From the UHGV virus genome UHGV-0133447: a DNA stretch of 28,245 bases; one strand, given 5' to 3'. Made by a program: the position numbers and the translations under genes. Position 1 is the first letter of the stretch; the number at the start of each line of letters is the position of its first letter. Positions 4,134-28,154 of the stretch are shown here, piece after piece. The notes beneath the pieces were generated by a model. That model was not told where the DNA came from and ran no database searches. It worked only from the letters and a program-made list of their open reading frames with translations. The DNA comes from a virus.

Positions 4134-4329
4134 CGCTGGCCCCTTTCGTGGCTTCTGCTTTACGTTCTGCCGCGGCGACGCTGGCGGCCGCCTTCTCTTC
4201 GGTGCGCTGCCGGCTGGCTTTCGCTTCTGCTTTACTGGTGCCTCGCGCATGGCCAATGCCGAACGCGCCAGCAATAGCGCCCAGAATGACAACCACCAGC
4301 CCCGCGATAGCTTCTATTCCCATGATCAT
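4048..4329 (-). CDS. putative inner-membrane spanin (Rz-like)
   Basis: 93 aa with N-terminal transmembrane segment (IAGLVVVILGAIAGAFGI) then a charged Ala/Glu/Lys-rich helical region. Start overlaps the endolysin stop (ATGA). The following lipoprotein ORF overlaps its 3' end. Confidence 0.45.
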   Translation of the reverse strand: MIMGIEAIAGLVVVILGAIAGAFGIGHARGTSKAEAKASRQRTEEKAAASVAAAERKAEATKGASDVEESVKRMGDDDVDRELREKFTRPGGG

Positions 4330-4955
4330 CCCACCAGTACCGATTTTGCTTTCAGGAATCGGGCGCGTCGGTCATCAATGCCGTTCTGCCCGCCGTTGAT
4401 AATCTGGGTCACGCGCACTAAATCTCCGTGGTATTTCAAACATCCGTTTGAGGTGTAAAACCAGGCTGCGCTGCGGGCCGCATTAATATATTTCTCCAAC
4501 AACTCAGGGTTGCTGACTAAATCCAGTTTCAGTGCATTACCGCACTTCATATAATTTTCGAGGAAGGTGATCCCGATAATTCCACGCCCGCGGTATTTCC
4601 AGCCATCGCCCGCAGCCTTATTGCCAAAACGATTGTTGTAGACGAGATTAGCGATCGCTCGTTGACGTTCGATCGGTAAAACCTTTTCGTAAGTTTTACG
4701 CCCCAGGGTGTTCGCCTGGTCCTGCGTGATGCGCTTTGCCTTCACAAAACCAGCCAGGCCGGCAACGCTATAGTTAAAACTTTCGACCATCTGGGTAAAT
4801 GACGTGCTTTCGTGTCCACACTGCGCTATGAACATCGCCTGATCGAGTGGAGCTGTAATGCCGAATTCTTTCATCGCAGCATCAATATGCGGAAACCAGC
4901 GCGCAGCTAACCCGGCGCTGATACCAGCCGCCCTTTGAAATTGTGATTGGTTCAT
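4326..4955 (-). CDS. endolysin, glycoside hydrolase family 19 (chitinase-like lysozyme)
   Basis: 209 aa with FIAQCGHESTSF-type motif and overall GH19 endolysin pattern (memory). Flanked by holin-like and spanin-like genes. Confidence 0.85.
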   Translation of the reverse strand: MNQSQFQRAAGISAGLAARWFPHIDAAMKEFGITAPLDQAMFIAQCGHESTSFTQMVESFNYSVAGLAGFVKAKRITQDQANTLGRKTYEKVLPIERQRAIANLVYNNRFGNKAAGDGWKYRGRGIIGITFLENYMKCGNALKLDLVSNPELLEKYINAARSAAWFYTSNGCLKYHGDLVRVTQIINGGQNGIDDRRARFLKAKSVLVG

Positions 4956-5233
4956 CAGTGCCTCAGTGCATCAACCAGTCGCGCCACATTCCCCCTGAAC
5001 CAGAGAACCGCGCCGCAGATAAGAATGTTAGCCAGCACCACCAGCCAGTGGGATGACTCGTACAGGCCAAACAGGAAACGGAAAGGGATGCTGGCATAAA
5101 CCAGCACCATGAGATAAGCCAGAACGGATATGCCCGGACGGTGTCTCGCACTACCTCGTTGGTAGAACATCAATGCCAGCACAATGACGGCGCAAATGAC
5201 TGCATTGGCCAGCGCTGAAGGATCATTTACCAC
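4955..5233 (-). CDS. holin-like small membrane protein
   Basis: 92 aa with three predicted hydrophobic segments and a basic C-terminus. Immediately upstream of the endolysin with a 1-nt start/stop overlap. Confidence 0.55.
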   Translation of the reverse strand: MVNDPSALANAVICAVIVLALMFYQRGSARHRPGISVLAYLMVLVYASIPFRFLFGLYESSHWLVVLANILICGAVLWFRGNVARLVDALRH

Positions 5234-5612
5234 TTGAACCTCCTCCCCGGAACCGGGTCAGCATATTGAACAAGCTATTTAGATCCTGGCTGTTGAGAAA
5301 CGTCAGAACTTTGATGATAAGCGCTGATATTAATACGGCTCCCAACGCATCAAGCGGACGGTCGCTGTAGCCAGTCCAGCTTGAAAGCTTGGAACCCACC
5401 AGACCGGCGCCCAGAACACCAACAATGAATGACGTCATAAAGTATGCCACCAGCTTACCGCGCGATATGTTAGCTGCCGTGGCCACGTAAAAAACCGCCC
5501 CGGCGAACGCACCAAATACCACGCCGTAATCTATTCCGGTAGCCAGACCGAACATGCTAGCCCCCATCAGGCCGCCGGCCGCAACTGAAGTACCAGAGAC
5601 AGGATCGGACAT
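5223..5612 (-). CDS. holin-like membrane protein (possible holin/antiholin partner)
   Basis: 129 aa, Gly/Ala-rich hydrophobic segments, GAGGGGG RBS. First gene of the lysis cassette. Confidence 0.55.
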   Translation of the reverse strand: MSDPVSGTSVAAGGLMGASMFGLATGIDYGVVFGAFAGAVFYVATAANISRGKLVAYFMTSFIVGVLGAGLVGSKLSSWTGYSDRPLDALGAVLISALIIKVLTFLNSQDLNSLFNMLTRFRGGGSSGK

Positions 5613-6493: not shown

Positions 6494-6496
6494 GGC

Positions 6497-6522
6497 CAAA
6501 GAAAAAGCCCACCGAAGTGGGC
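6497..6522 (-). terminator. intrinsic terminator (minus strand) with UUCG-type tetraloop
   Basis: Minus-strand reading ggcccac-ttcg-gtgggc followed by TTTTCTTTGG. Lies downstream of the TerB-like gene. Confidence 0.5.
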
Positions 6523-6896
6523 CTTACAGCTATCATCATTTTTTATTAGGTGTGGTGCCGGGTGCCTCCCGGTAAGTCGCCGCCAGTCCACAGACGACTC
6601 GCAATGCGCAAAAAAACATATCAGACTGGCAATGCCCCTCCGCATAGGGGGATTCACCACACGGATAATTTAGGATGTAGTCATAGGCGGCGTCAATAAC
6701 TGACACTCTGTCAAAGGCATCATTACGATGCCTTTTGCACAGTGCTAATCACTGGATCTAATAAGGGGCCAGAGCAAAGCGATTACCCCGGCTACCAGCA
6801 CGCCATCAGCCAGGATTGACATCATTTTGCTGGTGAAGTCGATAGCAACCACCAGAAACAAAAGCACCCCGGCTGCGGCCCAGCGAAGTTTACCGA

Positions 6897-7322
6897 TCAC
6901 AGGTACTGGTCCAGAGGAAGTTGCAGAGCCTGGGCAATTTTCTTCAGCTGTTTCTCTTCTTCTTCCCCGATGCCGTCGTTATCAGCTACATCAAGACACA
7001 GGCAAAGAACATCGACAGCGTCATCCGTCCCGGCAACGTCAGCCAGTTCGCGCAACGCCTGAGCGTTGGCTGAACGTGGTGATGCTTCATAGCGAGCGCG
7101 AATATTCGAACTCATCTGGGCAATTTCACCAGCAAATGGCGCGAATGCCGGGAGGGCCGAAATAGTCTTCTCCAGCACTGCAATCTCTTTTGCATCGCAG
7201 GTACCATCGGCGTATGCAATCGAGTACGCTCCCCAGACCGTGGCTTCTACGGCATCGCGGTTTTCCATTTTTTTTACTTCAACAACGGCTTTACGGGCTT
7301 TCTTTTTAAAAATACCGAACAT
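6897..7322 (-). CDS. TerB-like domain protein (tellurite-resistance TerB fold), moron candidate
   Basis: Using the ATG for MFGIFKKK...: two acidic motifs (AYADGTCDAKEIAVLEK and VADNDGIGEEEEKQLKKIAQAL) matching the TerB pattern from memory. The track ORF extends to 7403 with an alternative upstream start. Confidence 0.5.
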   Translation of the reverse strand: MFGIFKKKARKAVVEVKKMENRDAVEATVWGAYSIAYADGTCDAKEIAVLEKTISALPAFAPFAGEIAQMSSNIRARYEASPRSANAQALRELADVAGTDDAVDVLCLCLDVADNDGIGEEEEKQLKKIAQALQLPLDQYL

Positions 7323-7341
7323 AATTACGTCTCTCTTTAGT

Positions 7342-7404
7342 GGTGAGCCAACGCTCAGGGATGGTAACCACAAGGCGACGTAATACCGTCCCTCTTGGCT
7401 CACC
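7342..7404 (-). promoter_or_regulatory. long composite hairpin in the leader of the TerB-like gene
   Basis: Outer 10-bp stem ggtgagccaa (7342-7351) / ttggctcacc (7395-7404). Inner 8-bp stem agggatgg (7357-7364) / ccgtccct (7386-7393) with one wobble. Sits between the HNH-AP2 stop and the TerB-like start. Confidence 0.35.
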
Positions 7405-7453: not shown

Positions 7454-7954
7454 TTAAATAGATGAAAAATCACCATGGTACTGCCTGGAAGCAGCTACAT
7501 ACGCCCTGTGCGCTTCTTCTTTAGTGTGGAAGCGACCAAGTCGAATTTTTTTCTTTGCAATACTTATTTGCGCAATCCATTTTTTTCTATTGCGGGGGGA
7601 ATCGTTGAAATAGACCCCTTTAAGTCCAGCTGCGTTATTGCTGTGTATCCGTCGATTGCGAGTGTTCTGGTTTTGTGTGCAGAGCCTGAGATTTGTAATA
7701 CGGTTATTCAACTTGTCGCCATCAATATGATCAACAACAAGGGTTGACGGAATTTCACCGTATTTCAAGACCCAAATTATTCGGTGCACACGTATATTCT
7801 TTCCATTGAAGAATACCCTTAAATACCCAGTATCAGTCTTGACGCCAAGAGTGTCGCCAGGACTTTTACTCCCAAAAGGTGACTTGCAATAAAGGATGCC
7901 CGTAGTTTCATCGTATGAAAAAAAGTTCCTAACCGTTTCAAGAGATAGATTCAT
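7454..7954 (-). CDS. HNH homing-type endonuclease with C-terminal AP2-like DNA-binding domain
   Basis: 166 aa. HNH core VVDHIDGDKLNNRITNLRLCTQNQN. C-terminal GVYF...KKWIAQISIAKKKIRLGRFHTKEEAHRAYVAASRQYHGDF resembles AP2 domains (memory). AGGAG RBS. Gene is visibly AT-richer than its flanks. Confidence 0.8.
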   Translation of the reverse strand: MNLSLETVRNFFSYDETTGILYCKSPFGSKSPGDTLGVKTDTGYLRVFFNGKNIRVHRIIWVLKYGEIPSTLVVDHIDGDKLNNRITNLRLCTQNQNTRNRRIHSNNAAGLKGVYFNDSPRNRKKWIAQISIAKKKIRLGRFHTKEEAHRAYVAASRQYHGDFSSI

Positions 7955-8008: not shown

Positions 8009-8033
8009 CGAAAAAGGCCCGCGAATGCGAGCC
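8009..8033 (-). terminator. intrinsic terminator-like hairpin (minus strand) upstream of the HNH-AP2 gene
   Basis: Minus-strand reading ggctcgc-attc-gcgggcc (7-bp stem, one G-U pair) followed by TTTTTCG. Confidence 0.45.
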
Positions 8034-8246
8034 TGATGGATCCGCTTACTGATACGGAGCGACCAACCTAAGTTGTCGCAGATTCAAATTGTGGCCCTGC
8101 CTTTAAGTCACTTTGCGCGCAGCTGGGACATGTAGTTTTCGCATCGTGATCGGGATTCGCTTCAGACGCTGGCCCCGCAGCCATTTAAGTGCCGGTTACG
8201 TTTATCCGGCGGCTTTCGCCCGGTTAAGCCCTAAGGTAAGGGATTT

Positions 8247-8393
8247 GGTTGTGACACCAGGCCGTTACGCCTGCTTACTTCCTGCCGCTCTGTTTTGGTA
8301 TTGGCCGCCAGTAACTGCGACTCAGCCGATTTACAGGTCTTTGCGTCGGCCGGCGCTGCAGCCCACTTGAGCACATCACAACGGAAAGAGCGC
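8247..8393 (-). ncRNA. candidate structured tRNA-like element, copy A (degenerate)
   Basis: Minus-strand leader gcgctctttccgttgtgat resembles the leaders at 21901 and 22159. gttgtga can pair with tcacaac about 130 nt downstream to close the element. Contains gcgccggccgacg internal motif. Region 8036-8505 has no credible ORF. Confidence 0.3.
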
Positions 8394-8505
8394 TTAGTGC
8401 ATTTAAGCCAAACCCCATGTAGGAAGCACTCTTACCTGTTGTGCGCTCCGTTTCGTGGAGCAGACGCCGCCGGAATCGCACCGGCAGAATCATCACATTG
8501 GTATA

Positions 8506-8581
8506 TGGTGCTGGTTGACGGAATCGAACCGCCGACATCCTGCTTACAAGGCAGGCGCTCTACCAGCTGAGCTAAACCAGC
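8506..8581 (-). tRNA. tRNA-Thr (anticodon UGU), phage-encoded
   Basis: Minus-strand 76-nt cloverleaf GCTGGTT-TA-GCTC-AGCTGGTA-GAGC-G-CCTGC-CTTGTAA-GCAGG-ATGTC-GGCGG-TTCGATT-CCGTC-AACCAGC-A-CCA. Acceptor 7 bp, D-loop GG, anticodon loop with U33 and A37, canonical T-loop, encoded CCA. Confidence 0.8.
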
Positions 8582-9621
8582 AAATTACGCATTTCACTGA
8601 CCGTCTGTTCAAATCTCTCGGTTTCCAGTTCGACACCTAGTCCCCTTCGCCCGAGAAGAGCAGCCTGCTTGAGCGTTGAGCCTGATCCAAAAAAGAAATC
8701 AGCTACAACATCACCCGGGCGGCTACTCGCTGTGATTATCTGCTCCAGCATATCCGCAGGCTTTTCACATGGGTGTTTACCTGGATAAAACTGAACAGGC
8801 TTATGAGTCCAGACGTCGGTATATGGCACCGTGACCGATACGCTGAATGGTCGCCGTAAACGGTAATATTCCTGCTGGAGTTCAGAATATTTTCGGCTTA
8901 ACGATTGCCAGGTGCCGACAAGCTGGTGGTGAGGTTTTCCCAGTTCGTTGCGTGAGTGCTTATCCATGGCGATTGTTTGAAACAAAGCCTGCAACTTTAA
9001 ATAATCGGCTTCGTTCGGTAGCTGCCACTGACTAAGGCCAAACCAGTGGGAAACCATATTTTTCTTACCTGTGGCTTCTGCAATCTGAGCCGACGTCACG
9101 CCAAGAGATTCCCGTGCATCACGGAAGTAAGAAATTAAAGGCGTCATGACGTGTTGCTTTAACTCATTACACTTTGCGGCATATCCATCGTCTTTGGGCC
9201 TGTATGGCCCCTGATAATGGTCGGCAAAAATGATACGCTCAGTGGCCGGGAAATAAGCGCGTAAGCTCTCCTTATTGCAGCCGTTCCATCGCCCTGATGG
9301 CTTAGCCCAGATGATATGGTTGAGCAGGTTAAACCGCTCTCTCACCAACAGCTCAATATCCGCTGCCAGGCGGTGCCCACAGAACAGATACATGCTGCCG
9401 GCAGGTTTTAACACTCGCCAGAACTGTGCCAGACAGCTATCCAGCCAACGTAAATAGTCTTCGTCCCCCTTCCATTGGTTATCCCAGCCGTTTGGCTTCA
9501 CCTTAAAATAAGGCGGATCGGTAACAATAAGATCAATGGAGTTATCGGGTAGCGATGGGAGGTATTGCAGGCAATCAGCATTGATTAACTCAATACTGGA
9601 TATTTTTACAGTATTTTTCAT
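8572..9621 (-). CDS. orphan DNA methyltransferase, N6-adenine/N4-cytosine (beta) class
   Basis: 349 aa with TDPPYF catalytic motif near the N-terminus. No adjacent restriction endonuclease. The ORF's last codons overlap the 5' end of the tRNA. Confidence 0.85.
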   Translation of the reverse strand: MKNTVKISSIELINADCLQYLPSLPDNSIDLIVTDPPYFKVKPNGWDNQWKGDEDYLRWLDSCLAQFWRVLKPAGSMYLFCGHRLAADIELLVRERFNLLNHIIWAKPSGRWNGCNKESLRAYFPATERIIFADHYQGPYRPKDDGYAAKCNELKQHVMTPLISYFRDARESLGVTSAQIAEATGKKNMVSHWFGLSQWQLPNEADYLKLQALFQTIAMDKHSRNELGKPHHQLVGTWQSLSRKYSELQQEYYRLRRPFSVSVTVPYTDVWTHKPVQFYPGKHPCEKPADMLEQIITASSRPGDVVADFFFGSGSTLKQAALLGRRGLGVELETERFEQTVSEMRNLLV

Positions 9622-9770
9622 AGATCAGTAAGCGTAACTCTGATAGGCTCACTTTGCTTTTGCGCTAAAGCAGTGGGCCGTGGTTAGCTTGTGACCTGAA
9701 AGCATGAGCTGATGGCTGGCCGGGTGCTACAACACCCACCAGCCGCCCATTTTCACAGCAAAAGCCCCCA

Positions 9771-9992
9771 TTACTGGAGGCGCTTATAACATCCGAACTG
9801 ATAATCAGATAACCCCGCCATTACCAGCTGCGTAAGTATGAGCTGGCAGCGTTCGCGGCTCAGGTGAGTATTCTGAGCAATCTCCCCAGCCGTAGCCGGT
9901 TTGTCACTTAACTCATCAAAAACAGCCTTGGCTGTTTCCGTCATATCTTGCTGATTTAGCATGTCTTTTATCTCAAATAAGTGGTGTGACAT
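9771..9992 (-). CDS. small winged-helix-like DNA-binding protein (hypothetical; PapI/FaeA-like fold only suspected)
   Basis: 73 aa from the ATG (MSHHLFEIK...); the track's longer ORF starts at a TTG. Segment ATAGEIAQNTHLSRERCQLILTQLVMAGL has an HTH-like pattern. First ORF downstream of the late promoter/terminator. Confidence 0.35.
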   Translation of the reverse strand: MSHHLFEIKDMLNQQDMTETAKAVFDELSDKPATAGEIAQNTHLSRERCQLILTQLVMAGLSDYQFGCYKRLQ

Positions 9993-10063
9993 ACAGATAA
10001 CTCTGGTGACGGTATCCAGCAAGAACTAATTGAAAGAGAAGAAGATTTTATCGATTTTATCCC

Positions 10064-10089
10064 ATAAAAAAACCCGCTCGCTGGCGGGT
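10064..10089 (-). terminator. intrinsic terminator just downstream of the putative late promoter (tR'-like)
   Basis: Minus-strand reading acccgc-cagcga-gcgggt followed by seven T (complement of 10066-10072). Confidence 0.5.
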
Positions 10090-10127
10090 TAATCAACGTT
10101 GAACATACAAAGCCCATCGTTATAAAT

Positions 10128-10156
10128 AAAATTACACAAAAGCGGCAACTTTGCAA
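10128..10156 (-). promoter_or_regulatory. candidate late promoter (PR'-like) immediately downstream of Q
   Basis: Minus-strand TTGCAA (10151-10156), 17-nt spacer, TAATTT (10128-10133). About 40-60 nt upstream of the terminator at 10064-10089, analogous to the lambda PR'-tR' arrangement. Confidence 0.35.
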
Positions 10157-10172
10157 GTAACGTGTCGCTAAA

Positions 10173-11003
10173 TTATGCGATATTTATCAAATCAGGCACC
10201 TTTGTCACACGTTTAAGCTGTGAGTCGGTATAACTCTCTTCCTCAAAGCATCTTGTAACCAGACTTTCATAGAAAGGTTTCCAGCTATATCGCCAGGTAC
10301 GTTCTGGCAGACCAGGCAGCTCAGAGAGCATACCCCTGTATGCATTCGAAGACTTAGGACGACTATAACCGCGGCCTTCACAACGTTTACACACTTTGTA
10401 GACAGGCACTCCCTGCAGCTCTGACTCTTTACGGTCCAGGGTTTTTCCCGTACCGCCACACTGGCATCGCTTGCTGATTTTCCCGGTGCCGCCACATTTG
10501 AAGCAAAGAACATGGTCAACCTCTTCCACCTGACGTTTTACTTCAAAATCCGAAGGTGACTGCCTGAGGTCTTTTGCCCATTGCGGTAATCTCATTGTGT
10601 AGTGGCTTTTTTCCACCATTGAGGTTTTTTTTATGAAGCCTGAACCAGAACACTTCCTGCAATCTACGCTGTCAGCTGCAGACGAGGCATAGTCGTTATA
10701 AGCGAACCGAGCTATTATCAGCATACACAGCGGGAACTTCTTCCCTGCTGCTTTTCTTATCGATCGAGGCGCTTTTGATTTTGCATATTCAGCCAACCAA
10801 CTGACGGATGCCTTTCTGTCGTGTTCGCTGATTCCAGCTTTACCCAAAAACATTGACAGGCCTATTCCTGCCTCTGCCTGTGTCATCCCCAGAGCCGCCA
10901 TTACATCTGTCACAGTAAGTTGCTCGCTGGCGGTTGCAAGACCGCTATCGGAAATATGCATTCCTTTGGGCGCAAAAAATTTGGGAATTGATTCAATATT
11001 CAT
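10173..11003 (-). CDS. late-gene antitermination protein Q-like (Cys-rich, zinc-binding type)
   Basis: Repeated Cys pairs CRKCSGSG / CFKCGGTGK / CQCGGTGK / CKRCEGRG. Position directly upstream of promoter plus terminator and adjacent to DUF968 resembles Qin-type Q (memory). ATG at 11003 has a GGAG RBS; the track's GTG at 11021 is an alternative start. Confidence 0.65.
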   Translation of the reverse strand: MNIESIPKFFAPKGMHISDSGLATASEQLTVTDVMAALGMTQAEAGIGLSMFLGKAGISEHDRKASVSWLAEYAKSKAPRSIRKAAGKKFPLCMLIIARFAYNDYASSAADSVDCRKCSGSGFIKKTSMVEKSHYTMRLPQWAKDLRQSPSDFEVKRQVEEVDHVLCFKCGGTGKISKRCQCGGTGKTLDRKESELQGVPVYKVCKRCEGRGYSRPKSSNAYRGMLSELPGLPERTWRYSWKPFYESLVTRCFEEESYTDSQLKRVTKVPDLINIA

Positions 11004-11021
11004 GCTCAGTACTCCATACAC

Positions 11022-20105: not shown

Positions 20106-20780
20106 ATGAAAACAATCCAGGAAATCAGGCGGTTAAACGCCAGAAAATTGCGTGATGGTGTTGGCGGTAATATTTACTTCGCCAATATGATTGATCGCGA
20201 GCCTACTCAAACCAGCCGGTTCATGGGAGATGGCGCCACTAAAAACATCGGCGATGCAATGGCAAGGCACATTGAAAAGTGTTTTGACTTACCTACTGGG
20301 TGGTTAGATCAGGAACATCAAACCACTAATGTTGCTAAAACGCCCGATGTCTCTGATACAAATAGAAATATCACCATGGTTCCGGTTATATCCTGGGTAC
20401 AAGCAGGAGCATGGACCGAAGTTGGCTATGCTGAGGTTGATTTGAATAGCACTGAAAACTATCCATGCCCTGTGCCTTGTGGGCCGATGACTTATATTCT
20501 TCGTGTTATTGGCGACTCAATGATCGACGAATATAGGCCCGGTGATATGATTTTTGTTGATCCCGAAGTTCCAGCAGTGCATGGAGATGATGTGATCGCC
20601 TTAATGCACGCTTCTGGTGAGACTACATTTAAACGGTTGATTGAAGATGCAGGACAACGCTATCTAAAAGCACTTAACTCAAATTGGCCAGAACCTTACA
20701 TCAAAATCAATGGTAATTGCTCTATCATTGGCACCGTAATTTTTTCCGGTAAACCAAGACGATACCGAACGAAAACATAA
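20106..20780 (+). CDS. cI: CI-like phage repressor (HTH plus S24 LexA-type peptidase domain)
   Basis: 224 aa. C-terminal VIGDSMIDEYRPGDMIFVD...FKRL carries the Ser/Lys S24 signature. N-terminal HTH region. Divergent from cro. Confidence 0.9.
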   Translation: MKTIQEIRRLNARKLRDGVGGNIYFANMIDREPTQTSRFMGDGATKNIGDAMARHIEKCFDLPTGWLDQEHQTTNVAKTPDVSDTNRNITMVPVISWVQAGAWTEVGYAEVDLNSTENYPCPVPCGPMTYILRVIGDSMIDEYRPGDMIFVDPEVPAVHGDDVIALMHASGETTFKRLIEDAGQRYLKALNSNWPEPYIKINGNCSIIGTVIFSGKPRRYRTKT

Positions 20781-20819: not shown

Positions 20820-20848
20820 TTGACAATGTACCTCAACGGTACATAATG
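20820..20848 (+). promoter_or_regulatory. strong sigma70-like promoter with embedded operator (PL analogue driving the early-left operon)
   Basis: TTGACA (20820-20825), 16/17-nt spacer, CATAAT/ATAATG (20842-20848). The spacer contains gtacctcaacggtac, the same GTACC-N5-GGTAC operator type as in the cI/cro region. Confidence 0.55.
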
Positions 20849-21187: not shown

Positions 21188-21900
21188 TTACCACAGGTGT
21201 CTTCGGGAGGGGTTGCGGAGCTGGATTGACCACCAGCAACAGAAACTCACCCGACATACAGCAGCCGTTTAGCCCACGGCGTCGGGGGTCCAGTAGACCT
21301 GGATTAATACTGTAGGGGTTGTGCCGGTTGGTCGCCGGCGCCCCGCCCGAAGATTCCTGATCGAACATGGCGAAAGCCGACAGCGTTGAAGGCGATTTTC
21401 TCGGTTTGCGCGCTAAACAATAGCGGGGGTGAAATCGGGGCGGAGAAGCAGAATCCGCGATGTCGGGACTTGATACTTCCGGCCAGACCAACAAGCCGAA
21501 TGATCGCGTAACGGTCCTTTGCATCTGCCCCGGCGAGGTGGCGCCGCCGGACCGGGGCAGATGAATCGTACACAACATGAAAGCGCATTCCATCTTCATC
21601 CGTCGTGGGGACTGGTTTGTAACTGAAGGAGTGCGCTTCCAGTTGTGAACGGCAATATTCACGACCGTTGTATGGCACATGCAGCGTTAGCAGCCCGGAT
21701 GGTTCCCTTGAAGTTCCATGCGCTATCCGGACAACTGGAATGTGCAAGCCAAGTGTTTCAGGCACGACGTGCGCCCCACCAGCGCGGCGAAAAGGTGTGA
21801 CCCCCGGGAAGAGTCCGGGACACAACAGGAAAGAGTACTGAAGATGCCAGGAAACGCCCTACCGCCAGGCAGATAGACGGGTTATCCCGCAAGGGGTGGC

Positions 21901-22043
21901 GGCAGTGCTCTTACCGTTGTGGTGTAGCTCAAATGGATAGAGCGCCCCTTATGTGGGGAGTTGAGCACTAACCAATGTTCGCAACACAGGTTATCTCATG
22001 CGGCCGGCCGGACGTTATGCGGGTTCAAATCCCGTCACCACAG
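21901..22043 (+). ncRNA. candidate tRNA-like structured element, copy B1
   Basis: Leader ggcagtgctcttaccgttgtggt. TGTGGTG (21918-21924) pairs with CACCACA (22036-22042). D-arm-like GCTC-AAATGGATA-GAGC. T-arm-like GCGGG-TTCAAAT-CCCGT (22019-22035). About 60 extra nt between the anticodon-like region and the T-arm. No encoded CCA. Confidence 0.3.
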
Positions 22044-22080
22044 CGCACAACGATGAGGGCATTGACGAGCAAGGCACAGA

Positions 22081-22099
22081 GTCTGGTTCGATTCCAGAC
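22081..22099 (+). other. tRNA T-arm-like hairpin (loop TTCGATT)
   Basis: gtctgg-ttcgatt-ccagac, a 6-bp stem with a loop identical to the tRNA-Thr T-loop at 8506-8581. Confidence 0.4.
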
Positions 22100-22138
22100 G
22101 CCAGGATAGCTCTATATCTGGTGATGGGCAGGGAAAAG

Positions 22139-22155
22139 GTCCGTTCGATTCGGAC
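22139..22155 (+). other. tRNA T-arm-like hairpin (loop TTCGATT)
   Basis: gtccg-ttcgatt-cggac, a 5-bp stem with the same loop sequence. Confidence 0.4.
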
Positions 22156-22158
22156 ACC

Positions 22159-22290
22159 GGCAGTGCTCTCTTCGTTGTGGTAATTGCGGCTATGCGCACG
22201 TGACGAGCCAACCCGTTCATGGAATGCGTTTCCGGGCAGTGTACGTCGCCGGTTATGGCTTAACCCGGCAGGTGGAGGCACCACCGCCAC
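22159..22290 (+). ncRNA. candidate structured element, copy B2
   Basis: Leader ggcagtgctctcttcgttgtggt matches the 21901 leader at 20 of 23 positions. gttgtgg (22173-22179) can pair with ccacaac (22284-22290). Internal cgtcgccgg motif. Confidence 0.25.
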
Positions 22291-22529
22291 AACCTAGTTA
22301 ACTGTGCTGTGTGTAGTCTTGGCGGTTATCCAGTTTTCCACTATCCAAAGGAGGAAGAGGATAACGTTCTGATGGATAACCGCCCTTTTTACACAATACA
22401 AAAGAGCATCACCGGGCGACGGGCTCATTACCCAATCCACCCGGGCGGCGTCCTAACCGCAGGTGCTCTTCTGTGTTGTGTACGGAGAAATTCCCGGCGG
22501 TGGCAGCCGCCTTTCGAGAGGGTAAAACC

Positions 22530-24445: not shown

Positions 24446-24645
24446 TGGCACATGTGAAAGTGAAAGAATTGGTTGCTGCAGCATACGCTGCAGCACCTGA
24501 CCTACCACCAGCAGCAGCACAATTAATGCAAGACATAGCGTCAAGGCTGGATGTGACCTTTGTCGCCCTTACAGAGGCAATGGACCAGAACACCGCTATG
24601 GCCGCGATGATAGCGAACCTGAGCGAGGAAAACAGAAATGGCTAA
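24445..24645 (+). CDS. hypothetical small protein (66 aa)
   Basis: Start overlaps the upstream stop (TAATG) and its own end overlaps the ParB-like start by 8 nt, so it is translationally coupled on both sides. Confidence 0.45.
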   Translation: MAHVKVKELVAAAYAAAPDLPPAAAQLMQDIASRLDVTFVALTEAMDQNTAMAAMIANLSEENRNG

Positions 24646-25426
24646 AAACTCGATCGATGCTTATGGCGCCAGCGGCAAGACAAACGTTCTGATGTTCGAG
24701 CCGAAAAATCTGCATATTGTCACTGACAAGGCTCACCCGCTTTACGATGAGCGTATTCACTTACCTCTCAGTGAGGCAATGGTGCTGAACATCATGGATC
24801 AAGGTGTTCTGGAGCCGATTATTGTGTGGAAAGACCCGGAAACGGGGCTGTCCTGTGTGGTCGATGGCCGTCAGCGTGTCCGCCATACCCTGGAAGCTAA
24901 CAGGCGTCTGGCAAAAGAGGGAAAAACCCCACTGCTGGTTCCGGCTGTCACTAAACGCGGTTCTGCTGTTCGTATGGCGCAGGCAATGGTCAGCGCAAAC
25001 GAAATCCGCCAGGCCGATACACCGCTGGGCCGAGCCAAAAAGATGGCTGATGCACTGGAGCGCGGGCATGACGAGGAAGACCTCGCGCTGATGTTCGGCG
25101 TCAGCGTCCCCACTGTACGCGCTACGCTATCCCTTCTGGATGCCACTCAGGCAGTCAAAGACGCGGTAGAGTCCGGCACAGTAACAGTTACCCAGGCACG
25201 TCAACTGGCATCACTAAAACCCGAAGAACAGCGGGAAAAGGTAGCCGAAATCGAAGCGGCGACCGCTGGCACTACTGGTCATGAAAAAGCGCGTCGTCAG
25301 CGCCAGGTTCTCGGCGATAAGAAACCGCGCCTTAAAACTCGCAAAGAAATCACTAAAGCCCTCGAAGCTGCCAGCGGTGAATACGCTGATGCTCTCCGCT
25401 GGGTACTTGGGGAGGTAACATTATGA
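24638..25426 (+). CDS. ParB-like nuclease-domain protein with HTH
   Basis: 262 aa. N-terminal LEPIIVWKDPETGLSCVVDGRQRV matches the ParB/Srx GxxR core. Central EEDLALMFGVSVPTVRATLSLL is HTH-like. GAGGAA RBS. Confidence 0.7.
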   Translation: MAKNSIDAYGASGKTNVLMFEPKNLHIVTDKAHPLYDERIHLPLSEAMVLNIMDQGVLEPIIVWKDPETGLSCVVDGRQRVRHTLEANRRLAKEGKTPLLVPAVTKRGSAVRMAQAMVSANEIRQADTPLGRAKKMADALERGHDEEDLALMFGVSVPTVRATLSLLDATQAVKDAVESGTVTVTQARQLASLKPEEQREKVAEIEAATAGTTGHEKARRQRQVLGDKKPRLKTRKEITKALEAASGEYADALRWVLGEVTL

Positions 25427-26499
25427 GTAAAGTAGGAGATCATTTCTTTGAGTTTCCTGCATCACGTGGAACTCAGGGCGTTTCAATCGTCCTGATGCTG
25501 AGTGTTCCTGCACGGACCCTTACGCGAGTTCTCGCCAGCGATAATTACGGGGACACTCTTGAACGCTCGCAGCGAGAACTGAACCCAGCCAGGGCGAAAA
25601 AGTTTTATCAGTATCTTGTTGAAGCATACGAAAACAAAGAGCCATTTATCATTCCACCGCTGGTAGGTAACTGCGATTCGTATGTTGAATTCGAAGAGTT
25701 CGGAAACACTAATGTCGGGGTGGCCCGATTCCCAATGGATGCAGAGATTAAATTGTTTGATGGTCAGCATCGCGCAGCAGGTATTGCGGAATATTGTCGC
25801 ACCATTGATGAACCGATCCATGTCCCGATGATGCTTACTCTCCAGTTGCCACTGAAAACGCGGCAGCAGTTTTTCTCGGACATTAACAACAATGTTTCGA
25901 AGCCATCTGCGGCAATCAACATGGCCTATAACGGGCGCGATAAGAACGCGCAGGTGATGGTCAGCTTTATCAGTTCACACGACGTCTTTTCTGAAGTCAC
26001 CGATTTTGAGCATAACGTCGTTCCCGCGAAAAACGATAAGTGGGTGAGCTTCAAGGCCCTTAGTGATGCCACAGCAAAATTTTCAGGTTCCTGCTCGCAG
26101 GATGATCTTGAAGGATTATGGAATGCGTGGCTTATGCTGACAGGTTTAGATGATATTCGCCGCGGTACGAATCAAGCCGAATATAAACGCGAGTATATCC
26201 AGTTCCATGCCGTGATGATTAATGCCTTCGGTTACGCAGTGCAGCGGCTAAGCGAAGGCCGGGGAGTTCGTGGGGTCACGCTGATGATTGAGGATCTGGT
26301 AATGAATACCGGCATTGCCGATCGTGAAGATTTCTTTCTTATTTCATCATGGGTCGGAATTTGCGCCAGCTGTGAGAAAGCTAGGCCAACGGTCATTGCG
26401 AATGTATCCGCTCAAAAGGCTGCAGCATCACGCCTGATGGATGCCATCGTGAATAAAAGCTTGTCTGTTAGTCGCGGTAAGGAGGCCAGCCATGACTGA
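25423..26499 (+). CDS. DGQHR-domain protein (DndB-like)
   Basis: 358 aa with the literal motif LFDGQHRAAGIAE. Size similar to DndB-family proteins. Start overlaps the ParB-like stop by 4 nt. Confidence 0.7.
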   Translation: MSKVGDHFFEFPASRGTQGVSIVLMLSVPARTLTRVLASDNYGDTLERSQRELNPARAKKFYQYLVEAYENKEPFIIPPLVGNCDSYVEFEEFGNTNVGVARFPMDAEIKLFDGQHRAAGIAEYCRTIDEPIHVPMMLTLQLPLKTRQQFFSDINNNVSKPSAAINMAYNGRDKNAQVMVSFISSHDVFSEVTDFEHNVVPAKNDKWVSFKALSDATAKFSGSCSQDDLEGLWNAWLMLTGLDDIRRGTNQAEYKREYIQFHAVMINAFGYAVQRLSEGRGVRGVTLMIEDLVMNTGIADREDFFLISSWVGICASCEKARPTVIANVSAQKAAASRLMDAIVNKSLSVSRGKEASHD

Positions 26500-27073
26500 G
26501 GCTGAATTAGCGCTTGAACGAGCAAAAAAGCTGGCGTTCTTAATGACAGAGCGTTTCAGTATGAACCCCATTAGCGCCAAACTGCTTAATGAAGCATGGC
26601 GTCTTGCATTCCCTGACGAAGTTGCAGTGGCCAGGCGCATGAGGGCGCTGGTAGAGGCGCTGGAGAAGGCGCAGACCAAAAACGCACTCGTTGCCGGCGG
26701 CATTGAGGCTACAGCAAAGCTACATGAGCGCATCGCCGAGCTGGAAGAAGCAGAGCAAAAACTCTGTGCCGCTAACGTGACGCTTGATGCTCGCGCGGAA
26801 TTGGCTGAGCGCCGGTTGGCAGAGATGGAGTCCCGTACCGTCACCATTGAGCCATTCCGCTCGTTTGTCACTGATGCCGACTTAGCAGCGCTCCACCGCT
26901 TCGCCGAATGCTGTGATGACCCTGAATCTGGCGGTCACGATTTGGAACAAGAGCAGGTAAGGCGGCTTGAGGCAATCGGAGCATTGCAGCGTTCGGGGCG
27001 AATTAGCTACATCACGAGCTTTGGTGATGTCCTGATTTCGATTACCGCTGGCATCAAGTGGGAGGCTAAGTGA
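26492..27073 (+). CDS. hypothetical coiled-coil protein
   Basis: 193 aa. Start overlaps the DGQHR stop by 8 nt. Ala/Glu/Leu-rich heptad-like central region. Confidence 0.45.
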   Translation: MTEAELALERAKKLAFLMTERFSMNPISAKLLNEAWRLAFPDEVAVARRMRALVEALEKAQTKNALVAGGIEATAKLHERIAELEEAEQKLCAANVTLDARAELAERRLAEMESRTVTIEPFRSFVTDADLAALHRFAECCDDPESGGHDLEQEQVRRLEAIGALQRSGRISYITSFGDVLISITAGIKWEAK

Positions 27074-27249
27074 TGGCAGAACGCTGGAAAATTTATCTCA
27101 CTATCGCATTCATCGCCCTTGGCGCTACACCGATAAGCATGGTAGCTGCAAAGATTTATGTACCCTCATGGGCGCTTATTTGCGGGCACTGTGGCGCGAT
27201 AATAGCCGGATTTATTTGTGCAGAATTAGGAAGGGGAGCCGACCAATGA
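27073..27249 (+). CDS. small hydrophobic protein (58 aa)
   Basis: ATG overlaps the upstream stop (TGATG) and its stop overlaps the next ATG (ATGA). Two hydrophobic segments and a CGHCG motif. Below the ORF-track size cutoff, translated by hand. Confidence 0.35.
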   Translation: MAERWKIYLTIAFIALGATPISMVAAKIYVPSWALICGHCGAIIAGFICAELGRGADQ

Positions 27250-28154
27250 CCAGCAAAATATCCATAACCGACGAGCGACTTGCATCAATCCAGGCGACAA
27301 CAGTCGGGGTAAAACAGCGCGGGGCAATGCCGCGTGGTTTTTCAAAGTATCTTGTTGAAAACCTGGCCGCAATACTGGCAGAGCTACAGGAACGTCGCAA
27401 TGCCGCAAAAGGTCTTGACCTGGCGGGCTGGCAATTCAAATCAGTAAACGGTGACTGGTTGGGCCTAATTGACGAACACGGAAAGAATCAGGCCTTTCGT
27501 GAGGGTTGCGAAGTTCGCGAGGTTTTCGCTATGGCCGATGGCGTCAATGAACGCGACCAGGTACGCCGCGAGCACGCCGAGTGGTCACAGGCTACATTCG
27601 GCAATGTTGGTCCGGTTGGCCCATTGAAGCACCTGAGCAAAGAAGCGCTGGAAGCTGCTGCCGAGCCTGGCGACCTGTCGGAGTTTGCTGATATGCAGTT
27701 CCTGCTTTGGGACGCCCAGCGCCGGGCTGGTATCACTGATGATCAGATTACCCAGGCGATGATCGAGAAACTGGCGGTGAACAAACAGCGCGAATGGCCT
27801 GAGCCGAAAGACGGTGAGCCACGGTTGCACATTAAAGATCAGCCATCGGCGGTAGGGCCAGTAACAGACGCTATGGCTTACGCATTCCATCATGCGCTAA
27901 CCGATGGTCCCCTGGGTGATGACGATGTGGAGGATATTAAGATCGGATTGAGAGCAGCTTTCGCTAATGTAACCACCTATCAGCCATTACCAGTAGTGCT
28001 GAAAGAGCATCAAATCCGCGAACTAGTCAATAAACTGCGTGATATAGCTATTGAATATCACGGTACACAACAATTGCGTGAGCATATTGCTTGTGTTGTC
28101 CGCGCCGCTATGATCGCGGTCGCACAACCAGCGCCAAAAAGCGAAGTGAATTAG
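27246..28154 (+). CDS. DUF550-like (MazG-type dATP/dGTP pyrophosphohydrolase domain) protein
   Basis: About 302 aa from ATG 27246; the track ORF starts upstream at 27168. Central HAEWSQATFGN...LSKEALEAAAEPGDLSEFADMQFLLWDAQRRAGI has MazG-like acidic spacing (memory). Confidence 0.5.
   Translation: MTSKISITDERLASIQATTVGVKQRGAMPRGFSKYLVENLAAILAELQERRNAAKGLDLAGWQFKSVNGDWLGLIDEHGKNQAFREGCEVREVFAMADGVNERDQVRREHAEWSQATFGNVGPVGPLKHLSKEALEAAAEPGDLSEFADMQFLLWDAQRRAGITDDQITQAMIEKLAVNKQREWPEPKDGEPRLHIKDQPSAVGPVTDAMAYAFHHALTDGPLGDDDVEDIKIGLRAAFANVTTYQPLPVVLKEHQIRELVNKLRDIAIEYHGTQQLREHIACVVRAAMIAVAQPAPKSEVN

Follow-up and report, generated by a model that had tools for sequence, protein, structure and literature searches.

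The late-region transfer RNA (tRNA) genes of Shiga toxin (Stx)-converting phages of the 933W/Sakai type are named ileZ-argN-argO, and the tRNA region of phage T4 is associated with homing-endonuclease genes. In Stx-converting lambdoid phages, tRNAs for codons that are rare in the host lie between Q, with the promoter pR' and the terminator tR', and the lysis genes, where morons such as stx are also accommodated (PMC7547250). Threonine tRNAs are carried by the plasmid prophages P1 and P7 (trnT, in the leader of the ban operon) and by T4. Here we describe UHGV virus genome UHGV-0133447, a stretch of 28,245 nucleotides (nt) that was analyzed as a whole (referred to as the window), and its tRNA-Thr(UGU) gene, whose first 10 nt are shared with the end of a DNA methyltransferase (methylase) gene. 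With a probability that we put at roughly 80%, this gene is an optional, functional tRNA of the late operon that modestly boosts the decoding of ACN codons, and its overlap with the methylase gene is the scar of a recombination event.

RESULTS

A phage-borne threonine tRNA gene

A single tRNA, tRNA-Thr(tgt), was detected in the window by ARAGORN at 8506..8581 on the minus strand (76 nt, CCA encoded). The gene matched the Rfam tRNA family RF00005 with 74.1 bits (gathering score, 29; E = 1e-14) over 71 of 71 model positions, and none of its pairs was noncanonical (all were canonical or G-U). On the minus strand it reads 5'-GCTGGTT TA GCTC AGCTGGTA GAGC G CCTGC CTTGTAA GCAGG ATGTC GGCGG TTCGATT CCGTC AACCAGC A CCA-3'. 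The cloverleaf comprises a 7-base-pair (bp) acceptor stem, a D arm with G18G19, a 7-nt anticodon loop (CUUGUAA, with U33), a 5-nt variable loop, and a T stem (GGCGG/CCGUC) with the loop TTCGATT; the 3' end consists of the discriminator A73 and the CCA encoded at 8508..8506. By its score, arms, and loops, the gene belongs to RF00005 as an elongator tRNA of type I. The identity set of the Escherichia coli threonyl-tRNA synthetase (ThrRS) is G1-C72, C2-G71, G35, and U36, and all of these elements were found in the sequence, together with U34 and A73. An identical copy was present in eight public loci. The feature is a genuine threonine tRNA gene, and with this Infernal score it is unlikely to be a pseudogene.

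Its closest matches were in phages. Copies that were 95 to 99% identical were found in Kp4882-1, phage 5 LV-2017, ST974-OXA48phi18.2, KpF5, and a prophage of E. coli MLI106K4, and copies in the same range of identity in other Klebsiella phages have been annotated as tRNA-Thr. Identity was 91 to 92% to trnT of P1/P7, 88% to the T4 tRNA-Thr, and about 77% in the aligned part to E. coli thrU, which has the same anticodon loop, CUUGUAA. The gene is thus nearer to phage copies than to the host gene, and it is sporadic in bacteria: a 30-nt core was found in only 7 of 185,579 species-representative genomes. The rarity of this core and the low identity to thrU indicate that tRNA-Thr is a mobile, phage-borne gene of the P1/P7/T4 lineage and not a housekeeping gene. 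Between Klebsiella-type and P1-type copies, stem positions differed in pairs (U3-A70 to C3-G70 and G49-C65 to A49-U65), and the remaining variation was mostly in the D loop. Such paired changes are the pattern expected for a working tRNA and point to structural constraint across the lineages.

A 10-nt overlap probably produced by a mosaic joint

Upstream of the tRNA lies an open reading frame (ORF) of 349 amino acids (aa) at 8572..9621 on the minus strand, with an ATG start and the C terminus ...MRNLLV*. It encodes an N6/N4 DNA methyltransferase (Dam-like; N6_N4_Mtase PF01555, 2.2e-40; phrog_6025/67, DNA methyltransferase, 1e-96). The final codons are AAT TTG CTG GTT TAG, and the TAG, at 8574..8572, coincides with tRNA positions 8 to 10, so that the two genes share exactly 10 nt (8572..8581), tRNA positions 1 to 10 being the last 7 coding bases of the methylase plus its stop codon. 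A preliminary description of this DNA had proposed a complete cloverleaf with an encoded CCA on the late strand and a methylase ORF ending 10 nt inside the tRNA. The first point was borne out by ARAGORN and by the Rfam match, the late strand being the minus strand of the window, which also bears Q, the holins, the endolysin, and the terminase; the second was confirmed to the nucleotide by the ORF coordinates. An assembly artifact was ruled out as the source of the junction, because the identical 349-aa methylase was found in 52 blocks of a public collection, including four NCBI Klebsiella assemblies (record name, "MULTISPECIES: DNA-methyltransferase [Klebsiella]"), and because the tRNA and its flanks were identical in all eight loci fetched for this protein (eight independent contigs with the exact junction).

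Most relatives have about 80 nt of conserved leader ahead of the tRNA, ending in ...CAGATT|GCTGG, and no methylase there; phages phiNP, SfV, and mEp460 and the cdtI phages have a small ORF and a methylase after Q, and no tRNA. The window thus unites two arrangements, Q-leader-tRNA and Q-small ORF-methylase. Kp4866-6 (L001), which was 98.8% identical to the window across the region (blastn), has 12 nt in place of a 323-nt segment (8254..8576, minus strand) that comprises tRNA positions 6 to 76 and 252 nt downstream. Its methylase is longer by 10 codons, with 359 aa (...NLLEHRPPQPNPLP*), and no tRNA gene was found anywhere in its 45.5 kb. A first scan of genome contigs for the methylase 3' end found nothing. 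When IMG/VR was scanned for it, eight of the nine loci had the tRNA-less form, and the ninth (L014) had the same methylase/tRNA joint, its methylase sharing only 82% identity and the DNA 3' of its tRNA being different. The gene is thus present in some and absent from others of a set of near-identical phages, Kp4866-6 and the eight IMG/VR relatives being without it. In a third form of the methylase end (L034 and L035), ...TTGCTGGGTTAG is followed by unrelated AT-rich DNA without a tRNA; in more distant homologues, the protein stops at 350 aa and the tails are unrelated. Both the 349-aa and the 359-aa forms are common in Klebsiella.

The mosaic breakpoints in these relatives fell after tRNA position 5 (5/6) and after position 10 (10/11). 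Microhomology of 7 to 12 nt was found between the methylase end, ...AATTTGCTGG(K)TTAG, and the tRNA start, GCTGGTTTAG, and the end of the tRNA leader in other phages, ...CAGATTGCTGG, can be set beside the methylase end ...AATTTGCTGG in the same way; the string TTGCTGG(K)TTAG is common to the methylase end and to the leader and 5' end of the tRNA. Because the breakpoints cluster at 5/6 and 10/11 within this shared string, the best explanation of the overlap is recombination at a microhomology, which would have left both genes intact.

Internal cargo of the late operon

The window is a lambdoid (lambda-like) Klebsiella prophage. Along its minus strand, cro-like and replication genes come first, then Q, an 83-aa ORF, the methylase, and the tRNA, and then, 3' of the tRNA, a 550-nt ORF-free stretch, an HNH_3/AP2 gene, a TerB/TciA-like gene, STnc100, the lysis cassette, and the terminase. 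In lambdoid phages, pR' and tR' lie directly after Q (PMC7547250). Here, the gene for a 282-aa Q-type late antiterminator (10173..11021, minus strand; PF03589, 3.5e-45; phrog_127, 1.8e-94) is followed directly after its stop (10173) by a pR'/tR'-like late promoter region (10061..10160, minus strand). Candidate pR' hexamers, a weak match made by eye, are TTGCAA (10156..10151) with TAATTT (10134..10129) or TGTAAT (10136..10131). A terminator scan found a strong tR'-like hairpin, AACCCGCCAGCGAGCGGGTT, at 10090..10071 followed by T7, and further terminator-like hairpins of the minus strand at 9781..9764 and 8034..8015. The 83-aa ORF (9771..10022, minus strand; phrog_331) accompanies the methylase downstream of Q in phages of the phiNP, SfV, mEp460, and cdtI type. 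The downstream boundary of the slot is formed by the lysis cassette of two holins and a GH19 endolysin (4326..5612, minus strand).

The tRNA thus lies downstream of Q and a promoter/terminator pair, upstream of the holin and endolysin genes, and on their strand, and it is internal cargo of the late operon. The same tRNA was found 170 to 230 nt after Q and before the lysis genes in four other loci (L002, L003, L006, and L007). No promoter was found by a consensus scan of the minus strand from the tR'-like site to the tRNA. A dedicated tRNA promoter within the methylase gene was likewise rejected: the consensus scan found none, and a weak TTGAAC-17-CGTAAT, seen by eye, would initiate inside the tRNA. 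Because of the pR'/tR' layout and of the absence of a consensus promoter before the tRNA, we reasonably infer from layout that the gene is most simply expressed from the Q-antiterminated late transcript. The late-region tRNAs of an Stx2a phage have a promoter of their own, which is a caveat for this reading (PMC7547250).

Codon usage

Codons were counted in a simple greedy ORF set, with 50 kb of E. coli K-12 and 7 kb of prophage-flanking host DNA as host samples. ACA made up 18.2% of the Thr codons in the window (9.2 per 1,000 codons) and 23.6% in the whole genome of Kp4866-6 (12.2 per 1,000), versus 10.0% in E. coli K-12 (5.3 per 1,000) and 6.0% in the flanking host DNA (3.3 per 1,000). In this comparison of phage and host ACA usage, which the preliminary description had called for, ACA was two to four times commoner in the phage than in the host samples. 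Codon usage fits an argument from codon supplementation only weakly.

Structured RNAs around the tRNA

At 8377..8443 on the minus strand, 62 nt after the CCA, lies a 67-nt hairpin of a lambda late-leader type (CACAACAGGUAAGAG...CUCUUUCCGUUGUG), which was transferred with the tRNA. The same hairpin follows the tRNA-Thr gene in P7, in P1-like plasmids, and in Klebsiella phages. The basal stem, CACAAC.GG.AAGAGYRCUU ... AAGYGCUCUU.CC.GUUGUG, has 18 bp, a bulged A, and a U-U mismatch, and it recurs three more times in the window, on the plus strand (21571..21647, 21821..21921, and 22046..22179; chance expectation, 0.03 to 0.2). A scan of IMG/VR for the 3' arm returned at least 120 loci; among those listed were at least 104 distinct elements, with apices of 30 to 130 nt that were essentially unrelated to one another. 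In 3.1 Mb of fetched loci, 122 hairpin elements with 45 distinct arm pairs were found, and a reversed-sequence control gave no hits. Double compensatory changes occurred at five positions of the stem, and a U-G wobble fixes the orientation of the RNA. Among the matches listed, tRNA genes lay within 400 nt of the hairpin in 21 of 120 loci, always on the same strand, and in five loci a tRNA-Arg(UCU) began at the final bases of the 3' arm. The same hairpin is present in phage lambda (NC_001416) at 44787..44863, six bases past the T-run of tR'.

Neither this hairpin family nor the family of tRNA-shaped RNAs described below matched a model in Rfam, and no RefSeq annotation was found at the homologous E. 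coli sites. The hairpin was rejected as a nut (boxA) site: the boxA-like UGCUCUUU in the 3' arm is base-paired, no copy follows cro, and an N-like protein was not found. No Rfam family matched that would make it an HK022 put-like element, an integron attC site, a Y RNA/YrlA, or a ribozyme. A 1988 paper by Daniels et al. reportedly deals with RNase III processing sites of the lambda late transcript. The hairpins may correspond to these sites in the late leader of lambda, which we offer as a lead, not as a finding.

The leader of the pL operon contains a 126-nt tRNA-shaped RNA at 21918..22043 on the plus strand, flanked on both sides by CACAAC hairpins. It matched the Rfam tRNA model with 40 bits and a 68-nt insertion. 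Its acceptor stem, D arm, and T arm are perfect, a short hairpin of the tetraloop type stands in for the anticodon arm, and it lacks an encoded CCA. All versions of this family share the acceptor stem and the D and T arms; a 4- to 5-bp hairpin with a 4- to 6-nt loop replaces the anticodon arm, and two extra hairpins are present. At least 21 distinct versions were found in phage contigs and in Cronobacter phage JK004, and 13 of 32 predicted pairs keep pairing through changes on both sides. The surrounding region of about 1.3 kb (21190-22470, plus strand), downstream of a pL-like promoter, is ORF-poor, GC-rich, and highly structured, and it holds the three hairpins and the tRNA-shaped RNA. A weak DicF-like match at 22308-22385 (16.5 bits) fell below the threshold, and no N-like protein or nut site was recognized in the region. 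The P1 Pban leader, with its dicF-like region, trnA, trnT, hairpin, and tciA, has the same grammar as this part of the window.

A short conserved module, GCCGGAGAUCAGCACCGGCCACCACAACCAAAUC (a hairpin with a CACCA-like tail), recurs in many phage leaders (L004, L052, L075, L087, L093, L103, and L124). It resembles the T arm and 3' acceptor strand of the 126-nt tRNA-shaped RNA, and lambda has a similar sequence, CCGGAAGCAGAACCGGAUCACCA, after its hairpin. A shortened form stands directly 3' of the methylase in tRNA-less relatives (L001, L009 to L013, and L015 to L017), where it is read as the 10-codon tail EH(R/Q)PPQPNPLP. The tRNA-less joint also matches the short hairpin-plus-CACCACAACC module that is common in other phage leaders.

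Other features of the window

The hairpin at 8015..8034 (minus strand), with its T-run, resembles an intrinsic terminator and separates the tRNA region from a free-standing HNH_3 + AP2 endonuclease gene (7454..7954, minus strand). That gene lies between this terminator and the TerB-like gene and is an insertion relative to Klebsiella phage 5 LV-2017, which is otherwise collinear and lacks it. The HNH endonuclease was considered as an agent of tRNA mobility, for which no support was found, the HNH gene being present in both tRNA-plus and tRNA-less forms. The TerB/TciA-like gene (6897..7403, minus strand) is collinear with trnT...tciA of P1 and has 77% DNA identity to P1 tciA, at 7322-6896. Between it and the holins lies the prophage small RNA STnc100 (6494..6691, minus strand), a full-length match to RF02076 (100.7 bits), with a promoter-like site at 6696-6667 and a terminator at 6525-6504; STnc100 is reported to be related to the PasD small RNAs (bioRxiv 10.64898/2026.05.13.724894). 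A second, degenerate tRNA was sought in the 550-nt gap with Rfam (E ≤ 10) and with ARAGORN at a low threshold, and all hits were junk. The "tRNA-Tyr" annotated by the NCBI Prokaryotic Genome Annotation Pipeline beside trnT in P1-like plasmids lies upstream of trnT, outside the stretch homologous to the gap.

On the plus strand, an S24-type repressor gene (20106..20780) is followed by a pL-like promoter overlapping operator repeats (20820..20847) and by the leftward operon. At 24638-27073 (plus strand) and beyond, in L029 to L032, this operon encodes ParB-like helix-turn-helix and DndB-like (PF14072) proteins, and in relatives it also encodes dATP/dGTP pyrophosphohydrolase-like proteins upstream of the integrase. 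These genes may be cargo related to anti-restriction or DNA modification. An exact look-up of the 328-aa ORF at 27168-28154 gave no match, perhaps owing to a wrong start codon.

DISCUSSION

The preferred reading, a functional late-operon tRNA fused to the methylase gene by recombination, can be set out as follows. On induction, RNA polymerase modified by Q would proceed from pR' past tR' and the further terminators, so that the small ORF, the methylase, and the tRNA would be transcribed as one RNA in which the tRNA would fold. RNase P would cut at 8582|8581, and trimming of the 3' end would halt at the encoded CCA. Because G1-C72, C2-G71, G35, U36, and A73 are all in place, the product should be charged by the host ThrRS, and the charged tRNA would add to the decoding of ACA and other ACN codons. 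Recombination at the 7- to 12-nt microhomology would have joined the two genes while damaging neither, with the side effect that RNase P cleavage would strip the methylase stop codon from each cut transcript.

Several observations weigh against this reading. The candidate pR' hexamers were not called by the consensus promoter scan. AGG, ATA, AGA, and CGA are more over-represented than ACA, and ACA accounts for 13.6% of Thr codons in the few late genes of the window versus 19.6% in its early genes. Kp4866-6, the richest in ACA, has no tRNA, and the decoding benefit can therefore only be modest. The tRNA copies of some relatives are decaying, with two stem mismatches in KpF5 and one in ST974-OXA48phi18.2. 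Where the tRNA is absent, GCTGG and AGCACC remain as sequences similar to its two ends, and the change may have been an insertion or a loss.

The same mismatched stems, and the fact that ACA is not the most skewed codon, would suit a neutral hitch-hiker, that is, an intact tRNA without measurable benefit that is kept by a recombination-prone leader and moves with neighboring modules; the tRNA does come and go among prophages that are 98 to 99% identical, Kp4866-6 having none. We nevertheless regard neutrality as unlikely. The copy in the window is perfect and is identical in eight independent contigs, the compensatory pairs that distinguish Klebsiella-type from P1-type copies indicate long-term selection on the fold, and the same isoacceptor has been kept in P1, P7, T4, and many lambdoid phages. 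For other isoacceptors, phage tRNAs with resistance to tRNA-targeting defenses have been documented, and the body of this tRNA is unlike host thrU in the acceptor stem, anticodon stem, and T stem (about 77% identity), as might be expected if it replaced a host tRNA-Thr(UGU) cleaved or depleted by an anticodon nuclease or another tRNA-targeting defense. Such a role in counterdefense is very improbable: E. coli thrU has the same anticodon loop, CUUGUAA, and a nuclease directed at the loop would therefore attack both tRNAs; no nuclease specific for Thr(UGU) is known to us in Klebsiella; and a tRNA made from the late operon would arrive late for this purpose. Many integrases target tRNA genes, and tRNA-dependent lysogeny reportedly exists in mycobacteriophages (PMC10865867), which might suggest that the tRNA is a remnant of an attachment site or replaces a host tRNA gene destroyed on integration. 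This idea is effectively refuted. In a Klebsiella contig that carries the methylase-tRNA junction (L023) and the pL-side genes (L030), the integrase gene lies about 3.7 kb past the right end of the window and about 20 kb from tRNA-Thr, and beyond it are host genes other than tRNA genes (AI-2E transporter, ecotin, and mqo); no tRNA gene was detected at this integrase-proximal prophage boundary. The tRNA itself is a full-length gene between Q and the lysis genes, with no adjacent integrase, and differs from host thrU, where an attachment site would be expected to hold a boundary tRNA, or a fragment, matching the host gene. With the integrase so distant and the boundary free of tRNA, the earlier view that the gene is internal cargo and not the attachment site stands.

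The buried stop codon raises another explanation, in which the tRNA serves mainly as an RNase P signal that cuts the late transcript at the methylase end. Because the stop codon lies inside the tRNA, cleaved transcripts would become non-stop mRNAs, and degradation of the product tagged by transfer-messenger RNA (tmRNA) would limit or time the methylase. The cut at 8582|8581 would fall inside the Leu347 codon, 7 nt before the TAG; in tRNA-less relatives, the sequence next to the joint forms a small hairpin with CACCA behind it (GCUGG-AGCA-CCRGC-CACCA) and looks like an acceptor minihelix; and tRNA-shaped RNAs and RNase III-type hairpins occupy equivalent leader positions in many phages. This argument is drawn entirely from geometry, however, and RNase P acts poorly on a hairpin of 5 bp. 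That the methylase has three 3' ends among relatives (V*, G*, and an extension of 10 codons) suggests a C terminus that tolerates change, and in most relatives the tRNA follows Q without an ORF upstream. We therefore think it improbable that control of the methylase is the main function. A broader form of the idea, which is speculative and which we also hold to be rather unlikely, is that tRNA-Thr is one of several interchangeable structured-RNA modules in lambda-type leaders that act chiefly as RNase P/RNase III punctuation, cutting the long early and late transcripts, with the fate of the methylase mRNA coupled to tRNA excision and with decoding secondary. In equivalent leader slots the modules would be tRNAs (Thr, Arg-UCU, and Asn), the ~126-nt tRNA-shaped RNA without an anticodon loop, and the hairpin-plus-CACCA pieces, all bracketed by the conserved 18-bp stem CACAAC...GUUGUG, which lambda also has immediately after tR'.

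Taken by itself, tRNA-Thr matters little. It is ordinary phage cargo; its close relatives have already been annotated, and single tRNAs for host-rare codons are known in the slot between Q and the lysis genes. The locus is nonetheless a clean natural experiment: since near-identical prophages occur with and without the tRNA, and with three methylase 3' ends, the fitness value of a single phage tRNA and the effect of a buried stop codon could be measured directly. The flanks of the tRNA point to widespread, unannotated RNA modules in lambda-type leaders, namely, lambda late-leader hairpins with hypervariable apices and strongly covarying tRNA-shaped RNAs, which merit a study of their own.

Comparison with known systems

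In mitochondrial tRNA punctuation, a tRNA lies in a polycistronic RNA, the upstream mRNA ends where the tRNA is cut out, and the upstream ORF overlaps the tRNA. The window has the same overlap, and the rest would hold for its late transcript as well; mitochondria complete partial stop codons by polyadenylation, whereas a cleaved bacterial mRNA would be a non-stop substrate of tmRNA. The T4 tRNA-Thr has the same anticodon as that of the window, but T4 is virulent and carries it in a cluster of eight tRNAs under their own promoters. The window has an HNH gene 550 nt downstream of its tRNA, and an HNH gene stands there with or without the tRNA. The Stx-converting phages differ in their isoacceptors (Ile and Arg versus Thr) and in the lack of overlap with a coding sequence. 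In the Stx2a phage, the tRNAs are driven by a separate promoter between tR' and stx (PMC7547250), and none was found in the window.

In P1 and P7, the CACAAC...GUUGUG hairpin and then tciA come after trnT, as in the window. P1 also has a DNA methyltransferase gene, dmt, upstream of trnT on the same strand; unlike in the window, the two do not overlap in the GenBank record. P1 trnT is transcribed from the C1-repressed early promoter Pban, beside trnA (Asn), in a prophage that is a plasmid and not lambdoid. The closest parallels are the lambdoid prophages of Klebsiella and E. coli, in which tRNA-Thr, with its strand unchanged, is likewise found between Q and the lysis genes; phage 5 LV-2017 shares the downstream hairpin and the TerB-like gene as well. 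In these relatives, the tRNA comes after Q, tR', and the conserved leader of about 80 nt, with no ORF upstream, whereas in the window a small ORF and a methylase gene that overlaps the tRNA by 10 nt are interposed.

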